Shown: piece by piece, positions 2,577-10,381 of the stretch
Layout of the letters: the number at the start of each line of letters is the position of its first letter
How positions within the stretch are numbered: position 1 is the stretch's first letter
IMG/VR virus record: IMGVR_UViG_2531839265_000011
Coordinates: 1-10,381 of that record
Length of the DNA: 10,381 nucleotides
Strand: one strand, 5' to 3'
Origin: a virus
Lineage: Duplodnaviria > Heunggongvirae > Uroviricota > Caudoviricetes
The notes under the pieces: model-generated
Databases searched by the model: none
The model's input: only the letters and a program-made list of their open reading frames with translations
Told to the model about the DNA's origin: nothing
Translations under genes and position numbers: made by a program

Positions 2577-3665
2577 TTAACCAAAATAATTGACGCCTTT
2601 TTTCTTGCCACTGGCTTTCCCCTTTGCAGAAATATCCGTGGTCAGTGACAGATTCAGCGTAAATCCCTGTCCCGGTACCAGTGAAAACTCCACAGACTCA
2701 GCCTGCCAGTGATGGTCCTCACGCACACCAAATCCCTGCGTGACAAAACGCATCTCCGCCCCTGCTTTCAGCAGTTCCGGCCTGCAGGGCAACGTTATCG
2801 TCATCTGGCGTCCGGCTTTCTGCACACGTTTAACCTTCGACTCTGCACAGTGTTTTGCGGTGCCCTGGTCAGGCTGGGTAAACGGATGCCGCTTATCTGT
2901 TGACTCCACGTCAACTTTAACTTCACGTGTGCGTCCGTCACGGGCATCAAAATACCGGACCCCAACTTTCCCGCTCTTTTTATCCCCCTTCGCACCACCC
3001 GCAGCGCCCTGTCGCTCACCTTCACGATAATCCCAGTCTGATGCCATACCCGGCGTAATGGTTATCTCAGGCGCATTTCTGCCCCCCGTACTCTGTGATG
3101 CCCCGTATTCCAGAAATAACCAGTAGCCATTGGTCGGTTTACTGGTGGCGCCGTACATACCTGCAATGCGGGACAAGAGGGCAGCATCAGATTCTGATGA
3201 CTGCATCACCCACGGGATATGAATATCAGCAAGCACCGATGAGACGCGCGCCACCAGATTATTTTCAGTGGCGATGGTTTTCACCAGGTCGCCCAGTGTG
3301 ATATCGCTGAAAGCCCGGGTTTTCAGTGCGGTCACGTCTGCGCCATGTTTTGACGCATTCATGGGGGCTGCGGTGGCATAAATGGTGAGCCGGCGGGGAG
3401 GACCACCGCTTGCCACCTGACAGACGGTAAAACTGCCTTTATTGACCAGATTTCCGTTGAACCCCAGTCCCAGCGTTAGCACCGCGCCTTTCGGTGGCAA
3501 CGCCAGCGTCTCGCTGAACAGCGTTACCATCAGTTCATCGGACCGCTTTGTGCCAGCACCATTATCGGTATATCGCAACTCAGCCAGCCCACGTTTTATT
3601 GCCTTCGTGATATCCTGACCTTCCGCTGTCAGACTGAAATCCGGCTGATATTCATTCAGTCCCAT
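2577..3665 (-). CDS. gpD-like tail protein (P2 late control gene D family)
   Basis: 362-aa ORF; ATG 3665-3663 overlapping the end of the gpX-like gene by 10 nt; AAGGAG upstream; size, N-terminus (MGLNEYQPDFSLTAEGQDIT) and position at the end of the sheath-tube-chaperone-tape-measure-U-X block match gpD-type proteins of P2/phiCTX/R-pyocin clusters. Confidence 0.8.
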   Translation of the reverse strand: MGLNEYQPDFSLTAEGQDITKAIKRGLAELRYTDNGAGTKRSDELMVTLFSETLALPPKGAVLTLGLGFNGNLVNKGSFTVCQVASGGPPRRLTIYATAAPMNASKHGADVTALKTRAFSDITLGDLVKTIATENNLVARVSSVLADIHIPWVMQSSESDAALLSRIAGMYGATSKPTNGYWLFLEYGASQSTGGRNAPEITITPGMASDWDYREGERQGAAGGAKGDKKSGKVGVRYFDARDGRTREVKVDVESTDKRHPFTQPDQGTAKHCAESKVKRVQKAGRQMTITLPCRPELLKAGAEMRFVTQGFGVREDHHWQAESVEFSLVPGQGFTLNLSLTTDISAKGKASGKKKGVNYFG

Positions 3666-3874
3666 AACTGAAACGTCTCCTTCACTTCCGGTTCATATGT
3701 CCAGTCAGGCAACACGATTTCCACCCCGGCGGGATACACCGGACCAAAGTCAGCCAGCCCGGGATTGGCTTCCAGTACCGCCGCCAGTGACTGGTTAAGC
3801 CCGGTACTGCCATAGTGTCTCTGACAGATATCATCCAGCATATCGCCGTCAGTAGTCCGCCAGTTTTTCGCCAT
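3656..3874 (-). CDS. gpX-like small tail protein with LysM-like motif
   Basis: 72-aa ORF; ATG 3874-3872; sequence DMLDDICQRHYG...LAAVLEANPGLADFGPVYPAGVEIVLP has a LysM-like pattern; lies between the gpU-like and gpD-like genes as in phiCTX/R-pyocin-type tail clusters. Confidence 0.65.
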   Translation of the reverse strand: MAKNWRTTDGDMLDDICQRHYGSTGLNQSLAAVLEANPGLADFGPVYPAGVEIVLPDWTYEPEVKETFQLWD

Positions 3875-4343
3875 AGTATTTCAGCTCCAGTGTGAACGTT
3901 TTGTTCTTCGGCGCACCGCCGGGAAGAAAGGACGTGGTGTTATCTGAATAGGCGGTTGCCACGAAATACCCCATCACATCACCTGTGCTCGAGACCAGAA
4001 GATGCGGGGCCGGATTGTCATCCACCATCTGAACCAGTGTATCAAGGGCATCCATTCCCACACCGTCACGAAATCCCGCGTGCGCCATACCTTCAAGGGT
4101 TATTGTTCTGGCCCCCTTGCCGGTATACTGCAGCAGATCGTTTTTTCCGATAAGCTGTTGTTCATCCCATCGCCATTCCATCGTGCGCTTCATGGCGTTA
4201 TAAGCAGCAGTATCAATACTGAATTCAAACTCACCAAACGACAGCATGACGCGGGAGGCGACATCCGTTAATGATCCCACCGCGTCCCATGCTTCACGCT
4301 CAAGCCGGTTTACGCCCCAGCCCAGCAAATCCACCATATTCAC
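3849..4343 (-). CDS. gpU-like tail protein (tail terminator/tube-cap family)
   Basis: ORF-track frame 3849..4343, start as listed is GTG overlapping the tape-measure stop; a more plausible start is ATG 4337-4335 (GGGGGTG 3 nt upstream) or the internal ATG 4247-4245. Size and position immediately after the tape measure gene fit gpU. N-terminus uncertain. Confidence 0.6.
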   Translation of the reverse strand: MNMVDLLGWGVNRLEREAWDAVGSLTDVASRVMLSFGEFEFSIDTAAYNAMKRTMEWRWDEQQLIGKNDLLQYTGKGARTITLEGMAHAGFRDGVGMDALDTLVQMVDDNPAPHLLVSSTGDVMGYFVATAYSDNTTSFLPGGAPKNKTFTLELKYYGEKLADY

Positions 4344-5994
4344 CCCCAGAATGCATCGCCATCGGTCATGCGGGAACGCTGACCAAAATGAATATCTCCC
4401 AGATTTTTCGTTACCCTGTCAGCCAGTTGTCCGGCATCCTCGCCAGGCTTCTGAGTGATGTTAAATTCCGCCCGTATCTGATATGTGGGTTTTACTTCCA
4501 CCTGGCTGACACTGCCGGGGGTATACTGAAGAGCCGAGAGAGGATCCGAATTACCCTGCCCCTGAACTGCTGCAGGAAGTCCGTCAATATAGGTGCGGGA
4601 TTTCTCTTTTATCGCCTTAAAATCAGGTTCTTCTTTCGGCCCCAGCAGAGGGTCGAGAAATGCATCAAACTTTTTATCGTCATGATTCCAGGGGAGATAA
4701 CCGCGGGTGTCTTTATAGGCCTGTACAACCTGTTTTGTCAGGTCAGGATTTTGCCTGAGCAGTTCATCAAACCATTCACCCTGACCGTTTTTCTGCGCCA
4801 CTGCTCTCGCCAGCTCCGGCGACCCCATTTTTGCCAGATACTCCAGCACTTCCCGTCGGTCCTCTCGCGGATCATCCGCCAGCCCCCACTCAATGGCTTT
4901 TTGTGTAATTCCGGCAAGAACTTTTCCAAATTTCCACATCCAGGCAGCCATGTCGATCAGCGCCGGCAGGGCATCATCACGAATAAATGCCCGGATTTTT
5001 TTCCAGCCCACCATTCTTAAACCAGGCCGCAAGGTCATCCGTCACCTGTTGAATATGTGGGGCAAGTTCATTACCCAGCTGTCCGCTGATTTCATCAATG
5101 GAAGAACTCAGAACATTACGGAGATTTGACAGTGCCACATGTCCCTGAACTGCGCCATCAGCCCCTGCCTTTGTCACCAGGTTATAGCGTTTCTGCTCAC
5201 TGATAAGCTCCCGGTAAGTTTTCCCTGACAGACGCATCCAGGTCAGAATTTTATTGGCCTCACCACCGAACAACGCATCTGCCATTCCGGCAGCCACCTG
5301 TTCATTCTCCACCTGCAGTAAGCGATCAAATAAAAATTCGACCTGCTCCTGGTTGCTTTTCCCTGTCATCACCCCGGCTTTCAGTCCCAGTTTGCCAAAG
5401 ACCTCCTGAATGGCCCCTTTATCCGTGGCACCATTATCATCGTCAAAAACCTTGTTCCGGTACTCCTCAAACAGATCACCGATGTTTTCACCGTTCAGCC
5501 CCATCAGTCGGGCCAGAGAATCCCATGACGCATAGGTTTCATAATCCACCCCATAACTGCGGGCTATCCCTGCCCGCTCTGCCGTCTCCGTATTCCGGTT
5601 AAGCACAGCGGCAGTGCCCGCTGCCAGCGTCAACCCGGAACCAACCGAAAGCCCAAAACCGGTTTTAAGGACCGTCCCCGCCCGCCCTTTCCAGCGTTCC
5701 AGGCGTTCCGCGCGCGCCAGTTTACGGTTAAATTTGTCCTGCTCTCCGGTGGCATCATGAATTTTTTTACCCAGCTTTTCATACTGCTTTCGCAGATCAG
5801 TAATATCCTGTCCAGCCAGTACGCCAGCCTGAATTTTTCGTTTCAGTACGTCCTGCTGGCGTGTCAGGCGAGCCACTTCCTGTGTTGCCCCTGATAATCC
5901 GTGCTTCAGTCCATCAACCGATTTTTTTCCACGACGGATCTATCGTGCCTCCGATCCGGATATTCGCTTTAAGGTTATCGCCCACCGTTGCCAT
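4340..5994 (-). CDS. tail tape measure protein, reading frame interrupted twice at A7 runs (frameshifted gene or homopolymer sequencing error)
   Basis: Position directly after the E/E' chaperone; strong RBS (AGAGGAAG, 9-nt spacer) before ATG 5994-5992; three consecutive open segments (5994-5917, 5939-4980, 5041-4343) in different frames joined by single-nt shifts at A7 runs 5922-5928 and 4996-5002; Gly/Ala-rich hydrophobic stretch GFGLSVGSGLTLAAGTAAV typical of tape measure proteins; conceptual product about 548 aa. Confidence 0.6.
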
Positions 5995-6420
5995 AACGTT
6001 GCTTCCTCTCTTCCGACTCCGCCAGCATCATTGCCACAAAATCCGTATACGGCAGCGCCATCACATCTCCGGGAGACCACCCGAACCAGGCACCGGCACG
6101 CCGTATCGCTGTCAGGATGCTTTCTTCTTCCGCCGGACCGGCGGCAGCAAAAAAACATTAAACTGACGCTCCAGGGCCAGGTAATCACACGCTTCCATGT
6201 TCATCATGTCTGCCGCGTCCATCCCACACAGACCGGCAATCATATCCAGATCAGCCTCTGCTTCCGGTTTGTTACTCCGGCGATGCAACAGACGATCGCG
6301 GACAGTGGGCGCACGCATAGTGACGTGCGTGATCGTCTGTCCTGATGCGGTGACATACGGCACGGATAACACAATTTCCACGCTGCTGGCAGGAACGCTG
6401 TTTTTTTCCGACATAAGCAT
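5975..6420 (-). CDS. tail assembly chaperone E+E' fusion produced by programmed -1 ribosomal frameshift
   Basis: After a -1 slip at T_TTT_TTG (6154-6148) the -1 frame stays open for 57 codons (FFAAAGPAEEESILTAIRRAGAWFGWSPGDVMALPYTDFVAMMLAESEERKQRYGNGGR) to TAA 5977-5975, ending just inside the start of the tape measure gene; this is the standard E/E' (G/GT-type) arrangement. Confidence 0.6.
6112..6420 (-). CDS. tail assembly chaperone, gpE-like
   Basis: 102-aa ORF between tube and tape measure; AAGGAG at 6426-6421; first ATG at 6420-6418 is too close to the SD, so ATG 6414-6412 (6-nt spacer) is the likelier start; contains the T_TTT_TTG slippery heptamer 12 codons before its stop, as in P2 E. 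Confidence 0.75.
   Translation of the reverse strand: MLMSEKNSVPASSVEIVLSVPYVTASGQTITHVTMRAPTVRDRLLHRRSNKPEAEADLDMIAGLCGMDAADMMNMEACDYLALERQFNVFLLPPVRRKKKAS
6148..6154 (-). other. -1 programmed ribosomal frameshift slippery heptamer T_TTT_TTG
   Basis: Minus-strand sequence GTT TTT TTG in the E frame; heptamer X_XXY_YYZ with X=T, Y=T, Z=G, identical in form to the P2 E/E' site. Confidence 0.6.
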
Positions 6421-6473: not shown

Positions 6474-6968
6474 TTAAACCCGGATGATTTTTTTCAGATC
6501 CGCCAGAACATTAACGCCATTAATACGACGTACAAACTCCTCCGGAATAATGCAGATGGTTTCCACACCGTCGACAGCCTGGCGGTAATAACTCAGCGAC
6601 ATTTCCACCGTCACCGAGGCGTCTGCCTGCGATGTTGCCGGACGTGCATCCGGCGTGATACTGGTGATCATCCCCTGCAGGGTTTCCACCTGTCCGCTGG
6701 TCGCATTCCCCACCTGATAGCCCTGGCGGACAACAATCTCCGGCGAATAAAGCCCGGCCTGTAATCCCAGCAGCGTCAGCATGGCAACATCATAGCCATA
6801 AATCTTAAACGAACAGGTCAGCGCTTCCATGCCGTCATCCACTGCCACCGGTGCATCCATTGCGCCGGTTTTGATATCCACTGTCGTGATATTAATGGCT
6901 GGCGGCGTGTATTCATGCGCCCCCTGAAGGCGGATCCCGCCAGGAAGAAATAACGCCCATGCGCGCAA
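6474..6968 (-). CDS. tail tube protein (FII-like)
   Basis: 164-aa ORF directly after the sheath gene; C-terminal MSLSYYRQAVDGVETICIIPEEFVRRINGVNVLADL resembles the conserved C-terminal region of P2-type tube proteins as I recall them. The in-frame ORF has no ATG (only TTG at 6968-6966); a strongly RBS-backed ATG at 6991-6989 lies in another frame (see findings). Confidence 0.75.
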   Translation of the reverse strand: MRAWALFLPGGIRLQGAHEYTPPAINITTVDIKTGAMDAPVAVDDGMEALTCSFKIYGYDVAMLTLLGLQAGLYSPEIVVRQGYQVGNATSGQVETLQGMITSITPDARPATSQADASVTVEMSLSYYRQAVDGVETICIIPEEFVRRINGVNVLADLKKIIRV

Positions 6969-6987
6969 CAGTTTTTTTCACCCGTCA

Positions 6988-8463
6988 TCATACTGTCAGT
7001 TCCTCCAGCGCCAGTTTATTGTTAATCATTGCCCGCAGTGTCAGGCGCTCCAGTGGTGACTTCGGCCCAAAGTCATAATCAATATACAACTGCCCTGCCG
7101 CCAGGGTTTCTGCAGTGTTCAGTTCATCGTTCAGCCATGCACTGCCACCGTGGATCGCGCCCAGATTTTTAAGCTGACGCATATAGGCATTAATGCTGCC
7201 AAGAATGTCGTCTGCCACATCCCGATCAAGCGGGCGATCGACATAAGGCAGCATGGCCTCCTGGATGCTGTCCTCAATCACATCTGCAGTGCGGCGTACC
7301 GGCTCAAAACGCCACTGACTGTGGGATGTGCACAGACGGTTACCCCAGTGTTTAAAACCGTCATGGCGAATAATGGTGGAGATATTTTCCATGTTCAGCA
7401 GGTTTGCCGTGCAGTTCTGCTCCCCGAGAATAAACGTATCCACCTGCTCCAGACCGGTGATATTCATCACGTCCTGGTTTGATTTGGACCACCACCACCC
7501 TTTTTCGTAATCAATACGGGCACGCAGCCCGGCAGCACGAGCCGAATATGGACGAAATATCGTTTGCCCGCTGTCATCCGTCACTGACACGCGCGGACGC
7601 AGCAGCTCCACACGCCCACCAAATGACGCGCGCCGCTGAACCACATCCTGCGGTGTTGCCATTGAGGGCGAGTCAATATAGGCCACAGCCCGCAGCTTCG
7701 CGGCATACGTTTCCAGCGCCTTTGCCACGCCATCATCCTCACTGTACCCCGTGGCGATGAGGATGCGCGGTTGATAGCCTGTCACGCCCTTACTTTCTGT
7801 CAGCGCCTCCATGGCCTGAATCACCGCCGCACGCTGTTCGGCCTCTTTCGCCTTTGTTTTACTTTCTGCGCGCACCACAATCACCAGCGCCCCAGTCTGG
7901 TCAAAAATATCTCGCAGGGCCGGGTATAATGTTCCGGCTGTGCCCAGTTTCCCGGCCTGAGTAATGGCCCCTGCCACCACCACTGGTGTATTGACCGGGA
8001 ACGCCTCATCTTCTCCGCCGGATAACGTCAGGCTGAACGGCAACACCACTTTATTTTCAGCGTCTCCTGCATTCAGGGTGCTGACAGCCGCCGTCACAGG
8101 CGAATCCCCCAGCGCATTCACCACTTCAGTCACACGGTCCGCCGTGGCGTTAACCTGGCTGTGTTCGTCCGTCCCCAGTGTTATCGTCAGGGTCGTACCT
8201 TTCAGCGAGGCCACTGTCTGCGCATTTTGTTCTGTGGCAGCCACAGCAACAACCGAAATCTTATTACCGGCCCGACCTTCCTGTTTCGCCGTGAAATCCA
8301 GCGCCGTTCCCAGCAGCCAGGAGCCGGCTGTGCCGGAAGCGCACACACCACCAGAGGCGTCCGGCGCTGTCCCCACCAGGCCAATCACTGCCGTGGAGAT
8401 GGTCTGCACGGCAACCGTGCCTGTCGTCAGTTCAATGGTTTCAACACCATGTAATCCGGACAT
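6988..8463 (-). CDS. tail sheath protein (FI-like)
   Basis: 491-aa ORF; ATG 8463-8461 with GGGAGA 5 nt upstream; N-terminus MSGLHGVETIELTTGTVAVQTISTAVIGLVGTAPDA, central PRILIATGYSEDDGVAKALETYAAKLRAVAYI, GWWWSKSNQ, IRHDGFKHWGNR and C-terminal AETLAAGQLYIDYDFGPKSPLERLTLRAMI blocks match the conserved segments of P2 FI-type sheath proteins from memory. Confidence 0.9.
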   Translation of the reverse strand: MSGLHGVETIELTTGTVAVQTISTAVIGLVGTAPDASGGVCASGTAGSWLLGTALDFTAKQEGRAGNKISVVAVAATEQNAQTVASLKGTTLTITLGTDEHSQVNATADRVTEVVNALGDSPVTAAVSTLNAGDAENKVVLPFSLTLSGGEDEAFPVNTPVVVAGAITQAGKLGTAGTLYPALRDIFDQTGALVIVVRAESKTKAKEAEQRAAVIQAMEALTESKGVTGYQPRILIATGYSEDDGVAKALETYAAKLRAVAYIDSPSMATPQDVVQRRASFGGRVELLRPRVSVTDDSGQTIFRPYSARAAGLRARIDYEKGWWWSKSNQDVMNITGLEQVDTFILGEQNCTANLLNMENISTIIRHDGFKHWGNRLCTSHSQWRFEPVRRTADVIEDSIQEAMLPYVDRPLDRDVADDILGSINAYMRQLKNLGAIHGGSAWLNDELNTAETLAAGQLYIDYDFGPKSPLERLTLRAMINNKLALEELTV

Positions 8464-8517: not shown

Positions 8518-9069
8518 TCAGGTATTTTGTGGCTGCTCAGGCCAGCTAATATTGTTGTATGTGGTCTTATCCGTAATAGCGCTGAAATCCATCGCCTGCA
8601 GCGATTTCGCGTAAATGCGGTACGCTTTCAGCTTCTCCCTGTCTTCGTCACTGATTAATCCCGGCAGCAGGTCTTTTTCCCATTCGCTGGTCATGATGCT
8701 GACCTGTTTTAACAGAGCATCGCGCTCATCTTCCGCTTTAAGTTTGTAGTCGAAGACAAATTTATCGTCGCGGTAAAACCAGTAACCAGGCACGGTTATA
8801 CGGCGATTAGCGGTAATATCAGGAACTTCAATAACACTGGCGTTACGGGGTTCAATGCCTGTCACATCCTTACCGACCCACACCACGCGCCCGTCTCCGG
8901 TGTAAACCATTTTTATGGTGTCACTGGCAAAATTCTTCTGTTCTTCATACCAGTTTTTGTCATCTTCCGAAAAAAGCCAGGTGATACCATGTTGTTTTGT
9001 CATCTGATATTGTTCTGCGGTTTTCGGATTGCCCGCAGTAATATTTTTAAATGCAACATTGTTAAACAC
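8518..9069 (-). CDS. tail fibre assembly protein (Tfa, gpG-like)
   Basis: 183-aa ORF starting (GTG 9069-9067) 8 nt inside the end of the upstream fibre gene; C-terminus ...TTYNNISWPEQPQNT carries the W-P-x-x-P ending characteristic of Tfa chaperones; position immediately downstream of a fibre gene. Confidence 0.8.
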   Translation of the reverse strand: MFNNVAFKNITAGNPKTAEQYQMTKQHGITWLFSEDDKNWYEEQKNFASDTIKMVYTGDGRVVWVGKDVTGIEPRNASVIEVPDITANRRITVPGYWFYRDDKFVFDYKLKAEDERDALLKQVSIMTSEWEKDLLPGLISDEDREKLKAYRIYAKSLQAMDFSAITDKTTYNNISWPEQPQNT

Positions 9070-10381
9070 TCGCCACGTTATACCAGGTGCCGTTAATCAG
9101 TTTCTGAAGCGGACGGTAATACACGCCGCCGATGTTATCTGCCGAATTACTTCCGGTTTCCTGCACATTAATACCGGATAACCCGTGGCCTGAAGGTGAG
9201 CGAAATGTCCAGGATACCTGGTTACCTCCCGGGTTGTAATACATTTCGGAACCATAACGCACATCCTGTACGCCGCCATTTCGCTGCTGATAACGGGCAT
9301 CGAAATTTCCATAGTTTGATGGGGTCATCTGTCCGTTTACAGCGAATGTGATACTGCCATCGGTATTTCTCTGGCTGTAAAAATGCCAGCCGGAATCATC
9401 ACCAAGCTCTGCAACTACAGGTCGGGATGAATTACCCCATAAATTAAACGTTGCGTTTTTCGTCGAGTTGTTGGCGCTGGATAACGTGAATTTTTTAGCA
9501 TTTCCGGCCTGAATATTTTTTAACGCTATCGCCACACCATTCTGGAAACGAAATACATGCTGTCCATTCGCATAAACATCCAGAATGCCGTCGCCGTTTT
9601 GTTTTATACCTGTATCGTTATCCCCGAAAGCAATTGAGTTTCCGCCCAGCGCGTTCTGAACGCCGATACCCAGCGCACCATTGACCTGAGAACCGCCGCC
9701 AACAGACACTTTATGCGACATAGATATTTCACCCGTCCGCAGATTAATAGTGAACGGGCGAAGTGGACCAATATCGCCATTTTCACCTTGGTTTTCCTGT
9801 GTTGGAATAAGGTGCAGGCACTCTTCCGAACGACGAAAAATCAGCCCAAAGGCTTCGTTGAAAATCCTCAGCGCATTAACACCACGGATTTTCAGTTCCC
9901 CGGTCATGGTGTCACCATCACGCTGAACGGCATTTTTTGCCTTGTCCACCGTGGGTTTTAATCCGAGGTTTTCAACAGCCTCATCCTTGTCTTCCACATC
10001 CGAAAGATTCTTTTTTCGTTGCAGATAGCGTCTGTCTCCGATTTCCTGAGTAATAATGGCCCTGTCCGGATCAACTTCCAGCACCACGTTTTGTGCGTGC
10101 GTCAGCCCAAGAACCAGCGTCAGAATAACTTCCTTGATAACGGAGTCCGTCTGGTCTGGTAAAAAGGTGTCGGGATAACGTCCGTACGCGATAAGCGTAC
10201 CTCTGTCGCTGATCATCCCCAGTTCACGAAGGGTTTTACCGGGGTATGATTTACAGTCAATCACAATATCCCCGCTGATGAAGCCCTCCTCCACCGCACC
10301 GTCGGAAAAGGGTTCCTGCCCGAATTCGCCGTACAACGATGTCATTGCTGCCATTTCATCCGGCGTGGATGGCAATGCCCG
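9062..10381 (-). CDS. tail fibre protein, P2 gpH-like (5' end truncated by window edge)
   Basis: Open to the window edge (no stop between 10375 and 10381; the listed M is a TTG, so the true start is probably upstream). N-terminal region (TLRELGMISDRGTLIAYG...) resembles the P2 H baseplate-attachment region; DGDTMTGEL collar motif; C-terminal region (NALGGNSIAFGDNDTGIKQNGDGILDVYANGQHVFRFQNGVAIALKNIQAG...VVAELGDDSGWHFYSQRNTDGSITFAVNGQM...LINGTWYNVASV) matches the conserved distal domain shared by P2 H / Mu S-type fibres as I recall them. Confidence 0.85.
   Translation of the reverse strand, partial: RALPSTPDEMAAMTSLYGEFGQEPFSDGAVEEGFISGDIVIDCKSYPGKTLRELGMISDRGTLIAYGRYPDTFLPDQTDSVIKEVILTLVLGLTHAQNVVLEVDPDRAIITQEIGDRRYLQRKKNLSDVEDKDEAVENLGLKPTVDKAKNAVQRDGDTMTGELKIRGVNALRIFNEAFGLIFRRSEECLHLIPTQENQGENGDIGPLRPFTINLRTGEISMSHKVSVGGGSQVNGALGIGVQNALGGNSIAFGDNDTGIKQNGDGILDVYANGQHVFRFQNGVAIALKNIQAGNAKKFTLSSANNSTKNATFNLWGNSSRPVVAELGDDSGWHFYSQRNTDGSITFAVNGQMTPSNYGNFDARYQQRNGGVQDVRYGSEMYYNPGGNQVSWTFRSPSGHGLSGINVQETGSNSADNIGGVYYRPLQKLINGTWYNVASV

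Follow-up and report, generated by a model that had tools for sequence, protein, structure and literature searches.

The window analysed here, a stretch of 10,381 nucleotides, comes from an E. coli-type prophage lineage, and the prophage that surrounds it is not P2. It carries a P2-type contractile tail module made up of sheath, tube, E, tape measure (T), U, X and D, with Pfam matches for the sheath (PF04984/PF17482), the tube (PF04985), E (PF10109), gpU (PF06995), gpX (PF05489) and gpD (PF05954). Gene E, encoding the tail assembly chaperone, occupies positions 6112..6414 on the minus strand, between the tail tube gene (6474-6968) and T, which begins at 5994. Its product matches PF10109 (Phage_TAC_7), the family of chaperone proteins E, 41 or 14, over residues 14-89 with 52 bits against a cutoff of 25, passing the gathering threshold, and it also matches PHROG 166, 'tail protein'. 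A search of a phage collection with the DNA of the E region returned zero matches, and the lineage is known as prophages only.

The maximal E ORF (6420..6112, minus strand) opens at ATG 6420 and encodes 102 amino acids, the length given in an earlier note on this DNA. That length holds for the ORF, but the protein itself is likely to have 100 residues and to start at the second ATG (6414), which sits 6 nt 3' of AAAGGAG. The 303-nt version (100 aa) is the one annotated by RefSeq in relatives, where it is named 'phage tail assembly protein'.

Within E lies a slippery heptamer, T_TTT_TTG (6148..6154, minus strand), formed by the E codons GTT TTT TTG in the X_XXY_YYZ register; it is part of a run of seven T (T7, 6155-6149) followed by G6148. 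On the 3' side of TTG there are 11 sense codons and then TGA 6114-6112, the E stop being the 12th codon. The -1 frame starts with GCT at 6148 and remains open for 57 codons (AAAGPAEEESILTAIRRAGAWFGWSPGDVMALPYTDFVAMMLAESEERKQRYGNGGR) up to TAA 5977-5975, and this extension is referred to as E' (5975..6148, minus strand). The conceptual E+E' fusion (5975..6414, minus strand) has 146 amino acids and reads ...QFNVFL-AAAGPAEEE... across the junction. The end of E' overlaps the start of T (ATG 5994-5992) by 20 nt (5975..5994, minus strand), and the SD-like sequence ahead of T, AGAGGAAG (6009-6002, minus strand), lies inside E'. E. coli 52F4 has an annotated tape measure protein, MATVGDNLKANIRIGG..., and identity with it confirms the T start. 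On the coordinates and register of the heptamer, its distance of 12 codons from the E stop, the length and end of the -1 frame, and its overlap with the ribosome binding site and start of the tape measure gene, the earlier note was accurate throughout.

T itself (4340..5994, minus strand) matches tape measure PHROGs, and its product is presumably the client of both E and E+E'. In E. coli 52F4 and SC407 the gene forms one uninterrupted ORF of 550 aa; in the window two insertions of one A each, near 5928 and 5002, break it into three ORFs. The window appears to carry homopolymer length errors outside the T7 run, and its A7 runs at 6979, 5928 and 5002 may reflect either sequencing error or decay of the prophage; the length of T7 was confirmed by 31 near-identical IMG/VR loci and by the two RefSeq loci examined.

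Taken as a single sequence, the pattern is statistically unremarkable. The window contains two copies of TTTTTTG where 2.7 are expected, the genes of the window hold 12 in-frame XXXYYYZ heptamers, and the -1 frame is open for at least 57 codons at 5.8% of codon positions. A look-alike, A_AAG_GGG near the end of gene D (2625-2619), is followed by a -1 ORF of 73 codons that overlaps the fibre gene out of frame; it is not kept in strain SC407 and was put down to chance. The same view was taken of A_AAA_AAC at E codons 3-5, with its 42-codon -1 ORF, given its location at the 5' end and its implausible -1 peptide. Since the single-sequence pattern is unremarkable, its significance comes only from comparison with relatives.

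The heptamer is conserved and the -1 frame behind it has a coding signature

The comparison set comprised 12 lineages with fusion proteins that are 27-90% identical to that of the window. All of them keep an unchanged run of six T (T6) in the E frame, followed by G or A as the seventh base, which gives T_TTT_TTG or T_TTT_TTA. The codon before T6 is GTT, GAT, AAT, GCT or CGT (V/D/N/A/R), always T-ending, and the slip-site leucine is always encoded by TTR, which makes up only 15% of the leucine codons in the window's genes. On these alignments, conservation of the heptamer is seen in the nucleotides themselves; it does not depend on the preceding amino acid and exceeds the needs of the protein sequence.

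The E stop is the 12th codon past the heptamer in 10/12 lineages; the two most distant ones have it as the 11th and the 24th. The -1 frame is uninterrupted from the heptamer to the E stop in 12/12 and stays open for 52-74 codons in all of them. The T start was identified in 10 of the 12 relatives, and in these the end of the -1 ORF falls within -29 to +2 nt of that start, from 29 nt into T to 2 nt short of it. The -1 peptide is itself conserved (…RRAGAWFGWxPxE.MALP…). Both outcomes that the earlier note had named as refuting were looked for, and neither was seen: E' has homologues in the -1 extensions of related prophages, and none of the relatives with a T6 site has an early -1 stop past the heptamer. 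In a sister group, Hafnia phage yong2 and its relatives, the -1 E' ORF is kept but the site reads GTT TTT ATG, a non-canonical heptamer, so that the wider family does not follow one exact slip rule.

Substitution rates were compared over a block of 40 codons that spans the 38 gap codons from the E stop to the T start in 10 lineages. It can be seen that the -1 frame has a pS of 0.68 and a pN of 0.30 (pN/pS 0.44) with 0 stops, whereas the other two frames each contain 20 stops and have pN/pS values of 1.23 and 1.54. Of the three frames, only -1 shows purifying selection in the E-T gap by this measure, and it evolves as protein-coding sequence. We regard the comparative evidence as decisive.

We consider it highly probable (roughly 0.88) that gene E makes both E and E+E' by a -1 ribosomal frameshift of the P2 type, and we infer the ribosomal nature of the slippage, its efficiency and the chaperone roles of the products. 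The majority of ribosomes would read E to its TGA and release the 100-aa protein, while a minority would slip back by 1 nt on U_UUU_UUG, with the P-site tRNA-Phe moving from UUU to UUU and the A-site tRNA-Leu from UUG to UUU. The shifted ribosomes would then read the -1 frame through the annotated E-T intergenic gap and stop 20 nt inside the tape measure gene, yielding the 146-aa E+E'. Such tandem slippage predicts the junction peptide ...QFNVFLAAAGPAEEESILTAIR, whereas NVFFAAAG would point to P-site-only or transcriptional slippage. The junction is thus more likely NVFL-AAAG than NVFF-AAAG, both under standard tandem slippage and on the description of P2, and the ...NVFFAAAGPA... of the earlier note probably needs to be corrected to ...NVFL-AAAGPA.... 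If P2 E/E+E' and lambda G/GT are a guide, the E part common to both products would bind the tape measure protein and the E' part would recruit the tube protein; judging from the same two phages, a fixed low ratio of the products would support polymerisation of the tail tube, and neither product would be present in the virion.

The class against which the locus was tested is the frameshifted tail assembly chaperone pair, of the lambda G/GT - P2 E/E+E' kind. The locus has the position of such a gene, a -1 ORF that runs to the T start and lacks a conserved start codon, a conserved heptamer and a coding extension. That both products come from one start, in a fixed ratio, and are needed for tail assembly is known from P2 and lambda only (PMC5009743). 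With the T6 site and open -1 frame present in 12 lineages, and the same heptamer in P2, the assignment by the earlier note to the conserved P2 E/E' type of chaperone frameshift is upheld.

Other routes to the E' peptide

The same fusion could be made if the polymerase added an extra U on the T7 run, in which case the junction would read ...NVFF-AAAG.... Slippage of the polymerase on homopolymer runs is known to lead to this outcome (PMC5009743). The run is 7 T long in the clade of the window; in several lineages, however, it is down to 6 T, with A or C in front (GAT, AAT, GCT). Six T are short for efficient polymerase slippage, judging from other systems. The seventh base is moreover restricted to G or A, the register fits the tRNA re-pairing rule, and the P2 frameshift, at T6G, is described as translational (PMC3091744); a transcriptional origin of the fusion is very unlikely. 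Alternatively, E' might be a separate small protein that is not fused to E, translated from an internal start such as GGAG-N5-ATG at 6062-6060, or else through coupling or re-initiation at the stop of E. Gene callers do find an ORF of 45-51 amino acids in the E' frame in Salmonella, where it begins at an ATGA overlap with the E stop, in one contig (L091) and in 3/38 E. coli records, and 18 such fragments are present in the database. No conserved independent start of E' was found, however: the ATG at the E stop is present in a few strains only, and it is absent from 35/38 E. coli records and from the window, which has CTG instead. A separate E' would also leave unexplained both the nucleotide-level conservation of the heptamer and the unbroken -1 frame between heptamer and E stop in 12/12 lineages, and P2 makes a fusion; we find this reading hard to credit.

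The single-sequence statistics given above, with the number of heptamers at chance level, long -1 frames at 5.8% of positions and a look-alike in gene D, would be in keeping with mere coincidence, the E-T gap being non-coding or the true extension being the 82-aa ORF of the third frame (5940..6188). This explanation is effectively refuted by the strong coding signature in the gap, seen in the -1 frame only, and by conservation of the heptamer beyond protein-sequence need. The third frame contains 20 stops in 10 relatives, has a pN/pS of 1.54 and is open over anything from 6 to 68 codons, and the 82-aa ORF was discarded as the extension, just as the earlier note had argued.

Candidate stimulators and annotation of the gap

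A G+C-rich hairpin (6127..6147, minus strand; stem CCGCCG/CGGCGG, 6144-6139 with 6135-6130) begins 3 nt past the heptamer and, at -11.4 kcal/mol, is a candidate stimulator. It is present in the close clade and in Trabulsiella and missing from the other lineages. The earlier note had proposed a search for a stimulatory hairpin or pseudoknot just downstream of 6148, and none that is conserved was found: the RNAalifold consensus fold is weak (-4.5 kcal/mol), the downstream region of the window is no more stable than shuffles (z = +0.5), and the stable conserved stem-loop 5-9 nt downstream that marks dnaX-type sites is absent. Downstream RNA structure was rejected as a conserved stimulator on the strength of this weak consensus and shuffle-level stability.

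An internal SD-like GGAG (6169..6172, minus strand), 14 nt upstream of the heptamer and within CTG GAG (Leu-Glu), is a further candidate stimulator, on the upstream side. All of the 10 lineages compared carry CTG GAG unchanged at the nucleotide level, while most neighbouring synonymous sites vary, and GAG accounts for 37% of glutamate codons in the window's genes. It is possible, but on present showing rather doubtful, that E' forms a separate sub-family unknown to the curated models (Pfam, NCBIfam, PHROGs) and that the frameshift is at the same time tuned in a dnaX-like manner by the GGAG and not by downstream structure.

As the earlier note had noticed, the frameshift is unannotated. The 117-nt E-T 'gap' has no annotated feature in 35/38 RefSeq E. 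coli records with the prophage, and an unnamed 45-aa ORF lies there in the other three; an essential tail-assembly product would therefore be systematically missing. The main value of the present analysis is thus in annotation, and pipelines could add the E+E' join if given a profile made from the E' alignment. Nothing new is added to the biology of frameshifting, the mechanism being well known; the locus does provide another set of natural T_TTT_TTR sites without conserved 3' structure and a testable hint of an upstream SD-like stimulator.

Comparison with dnaX, lambda and P2

The gamma and tau products of E. coli dnaX arise by a -1 frameshift at A_AAA_AAG, aided by an upstream SD-like element and a downstream hairpin. 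The dnaX site is likewise a homopolymeric heptamer of the X_XXX_XXG type decoded by E. coli-type ribosomes, and the GGAG 14 nt upstream of the heptamer is a possible counterpart of its SD-like element, although, unlike in dnaX, this role is suggested by synonymous-site conservation only. The counterpart of the dnaX hairpin is not conserved, and the biological purpose of dnaX is unrelated to that of a tail chaperone.

In lambda, gpG/gpGT is encoded at the same position, between the major tail/tube gene and the tape measure gene, and is made by a -1 frameshift at G_GGA_AAG (Levin et al. 1993; Xu, Hendrix and Duda 2004, 2013, 2014; as cited in PMC5009743). The heptamer differs and there is no detectable sequence similarity to the E system of the window; lambda is also a siphovirus with a non-contractile tail, in contrast to the contractile-type tail here. 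The lambda frameshift is reported to be less efficient than that of P2, whose efficiency is put at 2-3 times the lambda value (PMC5009743).

Although E is recognised by PF10109 in both phages, E' of the window appears to resemble that of P2 only remotely. Pfam PF06528 (Phage_P2_GpE; threshold 23 bits) gives no match to the E' of the window even at E <= 10, and P2 E' scores 78.7 bits against it; four other members of the clade show sub-threshold matches, the best at 16 bits (E 0.0088). E' alone returned zero matches in Pfam, NCBIfam and PHROGs, none of the database fragments of E' carries a Pfam domain, and a PDB sequence search with the E+E' profile likewise returned zero matches. When the clade E+E' profile was aligned with P2 E+E' by hhalign, however, 116 columns were covered at 22% identity (E 1.9e-5, probability 78%), with the FL residues of the slip site in register. 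With E' only, hhalign aligned 21 columns on an F.W.PSE motif that is common to P2 and the lineage of the window (probability 58%, P 1e-4), and profile-profile P values for E' against P2 E' are about 1e-4 to 2e-5. The alignment to P2 foreseen by the earlier note holds over the fusion and its slip site, and is distant and tentative for E' itself, on which PF06528 is silent.

The tail module departs from that of P2 in having a sheath of 491 aa, a tape measure of 550 aa and a gpX gene placed between U and D, and the gene order is otherwise the same: sheath, tube, E and T, followed by U and D. From the slip-site TTG, P2 reaches its E stop at the 7th codon and the window at the 12th, and E' overlaps the T start by 8 nt in P2 and by 20 nt in the window. 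E' is 57 amino acids long in both, and neither P2 nor the lineage of the window has a convincing downstream hairpin. P2 is the experimentally established case: its frameshift in the FETUD tail operon is attributed to Christie et al. 2002 (as cited in PMC3091744 and PMC5009743) and occurs at TTTTTTG without a downstream hairpin, giving a 91-aa E and a 142-aa E+E' (PMC3091744). Both E and E+E' are entered in the GenBank record of P2 (NC_001895), with the -1 frameshift placed at GGT TTT TTG, and the T_TTT_TTG heptamer of gpE/gpE+E' is identical to that of the window, in the same register.

The tail module and the E/E' site

Every gene of the window lies on the minus strand, and Pfam recognises a P2-type contractile tail module comprising a tail fibre (9062-10375; several families including PF12571), a fibre assembly protein (8518-9069; PF02413), the sheath (6988-8463; PF04984/PF17482), the tube (6474-6968; PF04985), the tail assembly chaperone E (6112-6420; PF10109 Phage_TAC_7, 52 bits), gpU (3849-4343; PF06995), gpX (3656-3874; PF05489), gpD (2577-3665; PF05954, a weak match under Pfam's cutoff) and a second fibre (588-2552; PF08400). 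The gene between E and U, also on the minus strand, is the tape measure gene T (ATG at 5994); an E. coli copy 98% identical to it is annotated as tape measure, and it matches tape measure PHROGs. A hairpin resembling an intrinsic terminator (AGGCGGC-TCAG-GCCGCCT then TTTCTTTTTT; 6455-6428, minus strand), kept in the E. coli relatives, lies between the tube stop (6474) and the E start (6414). By attenuation it could lower transcription of the low-copy chaperone and tape measure genes relative to that of sheath and tube, which are abundant.

E likely starts at its second ATG (6414), which sits 6 nt past AAAGGAG and is the start used by RefSeq in relatives. The E-frame codons at the site are AAT GTT TTT TTG CTG CCG CCG GTC CGG CGG AAG AAG AAA GCA TCC TGA, and therefore T_TTT_TTG (6154-6148, minus strand) is an in-register X_XXY_YYZ heptamer, with the E stop as the 12th codon past the slip-site TTG. 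Read in the -1 frame, the sequence from G6148 gives AAAGPAEEESILTAIRRAGAWFGWSPGDVMALPYTDFVAMMLAESEERKQRYGNGGR, followed by a TAA (5977-5975) that lies 20 nt inside T. An earlier note had proposed an unannotated P2-type -1 frameshift here, and when the heptamer, the stops and the -1 frame were checked every one of its coordinates proved correct.

On the window sequence by itself the site is no more than chance. TTTTTTG occurs twice against 2.7 expected, 12 XXXYYYZ heptamers stand in frame within the window's genes, and the -1 frame is open for at least 57 codons at 5.8% of codon positions. The case therefore depends on comparison with relatives. Two look-alikes were judged to be chance occurrences: A_AAG_GGG near the end of gene D (2625-2619; 73-codon -1 ORF), where the heptamer is not retained in strain SC407 and the -1 extension runs into the fibre gene in a different frame, and A_AAA_AAC within E codons 3-5 (6406-6400; 42-codon -1 ORF).

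The stretch between the E stop and the T start is without annotation in 35 of 38 E. coli RefSeq records; in the other three, an ORF of 45 aa with no name is called in the E' frame. E' is represented in the protein database by only 18 fragments, each of them 'hypothetical' or unnamed and lacking any Pfam domain. The finding is a valid annotation correction within an already well known class, and brings no new biology.

The window departs from E. coli 52F4 and SC407 at three homopolymers on the minus strand, each time by a single base, and in every case its run is A7. One, A8 to A7 in the tube gene (6979), removes the first codons of tube to leave a small ORF (6991-6818) and ORF 6968-6474, while two A6 to A7 changes (5928 and 5002) break T into three ORFs (5994-5914, 5876-4977 and 5038-4340). 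These changes look like homopolymer miscalling or, alternatively, prophage decay. The slip-site run is unaffected, being T7 in every locus examined, 31 near-identical ones from IMG/VR and two from RefSeq. A 122-aa database variant of E (P0003; 25 member sequences, E. coli) reads ...QFNVF then CCRRSGGRRK..., which corresponds to E continuing in the third frame and would follow from a T run shortened by one base (T6) in the assemblies concerned, an indication that the slippery run itself varies in length or is miscalled.

Conservation of the heptamer and the -1 frame

Prophages in E. coli chromosomes are approximately 94% identical to the window, at least 80% of which is present in 47 of 5426 complete genomes; no isolated phage gave a DNA-level match. 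Graded relatives were gathered by protein and locus searches, and their E proteins range from 80% identity to the window's (Salmonella) through 55-64% (three metagenomic contigs) and 51-60% (Citrobacter, Trabulsiella, Cedecea and Dryocola) to 35-39% (a second Citrobacter and one IMG/VR contig). All 12 lineages carry NNT TTT TTG or NNT TTT TTA in frame. In 10 of them the E stop is the 12th codon past the slip-site Leu, and in the two most distant it is codon 11 and codon 24. Every lineage keeps the -1 frame open, for 52-74 codons, and where the T start could be identified (10 of the 12 relatives) the -1 ORF stops no further than 29 nt into T and no earlier than 2 nt ahead of that start. The earlier note's proposed extension is indeed homologous among relatives: the -1 peptides align without gaps across the core I..(A/G)(I/L/V)RR.G.W(F/Y)GW.P...(I/V/L)(M/L).(L/M)P...F, and none is cut short by an early stop.

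Nei-Gojobori counts were made on a gap-free 40-codon block from 10 lineages, spanning 38 intergenic codons free of E and T overlap. Here the -1 frame has pS 0.68, pN 0.30 and pN/pS 0.44 with no stops, against pS 0.31, pN 0.39, pN/pS 1.23 and 20 stops for the 0 frame (E continued). At the slip site itself the T6 columns do not vary. The residue preceding Phe may be V, D, N, A or R, yet the last base of its codon is T every time; Phe is always TTT; and Leu is only TTG or TTA, although TTR makes up just 15% of Leu codons among the window's genes. These constraints indicate selection on the heptamer nucleotides and not on the protein alone.

Variant sites are seen in the wider chaperone family. 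In a sister group comprising Hafnia phage yong2 (L005, 1510-1931) and IMG/VR loci L044-L059 (minus L055, L056 and L058), a homologous E' is kept in the -1 frame and ends inside the tape measure gene, and the shared site, GTT TTT ATG (T5A), is non-canonical, not X_XXY_YYZ; the yong2 GenBank record covers E' with just a 39-aa 'hypothetical protein'. Among more distant E homologues, in Escherichia phage PhiKM (L003), Klebsiella phage KP12 (L004) and the IMG/VR loci L073 and L079 (Pseudomonas-type YFRLV group), no canonical heptamer was found, and E'-like peptides (e.g. ARWFRFQPGEIDALDTDDLEMWLEQ, YGFQPSEIDRMTCADLLWWL) are encoded not in the -1 frame but in +1 (the same as -2) with respect to E. 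Judged from these sequences, branches of this one chaperone family seem to recode in different directions.

Probable ribosomal slippage, its alternatives and candidate stimulators

The best supported explanation is that ribosomes slip back by one in tandem on U_UUU_UUG, which would yield a 100-aa E and a 146-aa E+E'. If P2 and lambda are a guide, these products would serve as chaperones for the tape measure and the tube. Tandem slippage predicts the fusion junction ...NVFL|AAAGPA..., in place of the NVFFAAAGPA given in the earlier note. Chance is ruled out by the open -1 frame in 12 lineages, its coding signature and the nucleotide conservation of the heptamer. That note had also dismissed the 82-aa third-frame ORF (5940..6188) as the extension, rightly so, since the +1 frame has pS 0.27, pN 0.42, pN/pS 1.54 and 20 stops, and an open length of 6 to 68 codons across the lineages.

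Slippage during transcription of the T7 run could also occur but is unlikely, as several lineages have only T6. It is also unlikely that E' is translated independently. PGAP does call a separate 'hypothetical protein' of 45 aa in the E' frame from the last base of the E stop in E. coli 08-00022 (L097) and Sx181-0-1 (L098), and a Salmonella locus (L090) has ATGA at the E stop region, where the gene caller reports a 51-aa ORF. However, this ATG is seen in few strains and is missing from the window (CTGA) and from 35/38 RefSeq records, and independent translation leaves the conservation of the heptamer unexplained.

A conserved stimulatory structure just past the heptamer, which the earlier note proposed to look for, is not borne out: a G+C-rich hairpin (6144-6130, -11.4 kcal/mol) does begin 3 nt past it, but is confined to close relatives and Trabulsiella, the consensus fold downstream of the heptamer in 11 lineages is weak (-4.5 kcal/mol), and the 63-nt segment following the window's heptamer is no more stable than shuffles (z = +0.5). 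Upstream, CTG GAG, containing a Shine-Dalgarno-like GGAG (6172-6169, minus strand) 14 nt ahead of the heptamer, has the same nucleotides in 10/10 lineages, whereas most neighbouring synonymous sites vary. In dnaX, a Shine-Dalgarno-like element at about such a distance can stimulate -1 slippage. We regard this GGAG as a possible frameshift stimulator, and as a lead instead of a result.

Comparison with P2

In its GenBank record, P2 carries an annotated -1 frameshift site, with E of 91 aa and E+E' of 142 aa. The P2 site, GGT TTT TTG, is the same heptamer in the same register as that of the window; in P2 the 57-aa E' ends in a TAA that gives an 8-nt overlap with the T ATG. P2 shifts at TTTTTTG, a site conserved in Burkholderia P2-like phages and lacking downstream hairpins (Lynch et al., PMC3091744), and the P2 shift belongs to the conserved G/GT class, with an efficiency 2-3 times that of lambda (Atkins et al., PMC5009743). 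At the sequence level the window and P2 are only remotely similar, and Pfam PF06528 (P2 GpE), which scores 78.7 bits on P2 E' itself, misses the window's E' and gives only sub-threshold matches, in four other clade members. With hhalign, the clade E+E' profile matches P2 E+E' (E 1.9e-5, probability 78%, 116 columns), the FL slip-site residues being aligned; E' alone matches P2 E' with P 1e-4, placing WFGWSPGDV against IFHWPPSEL.
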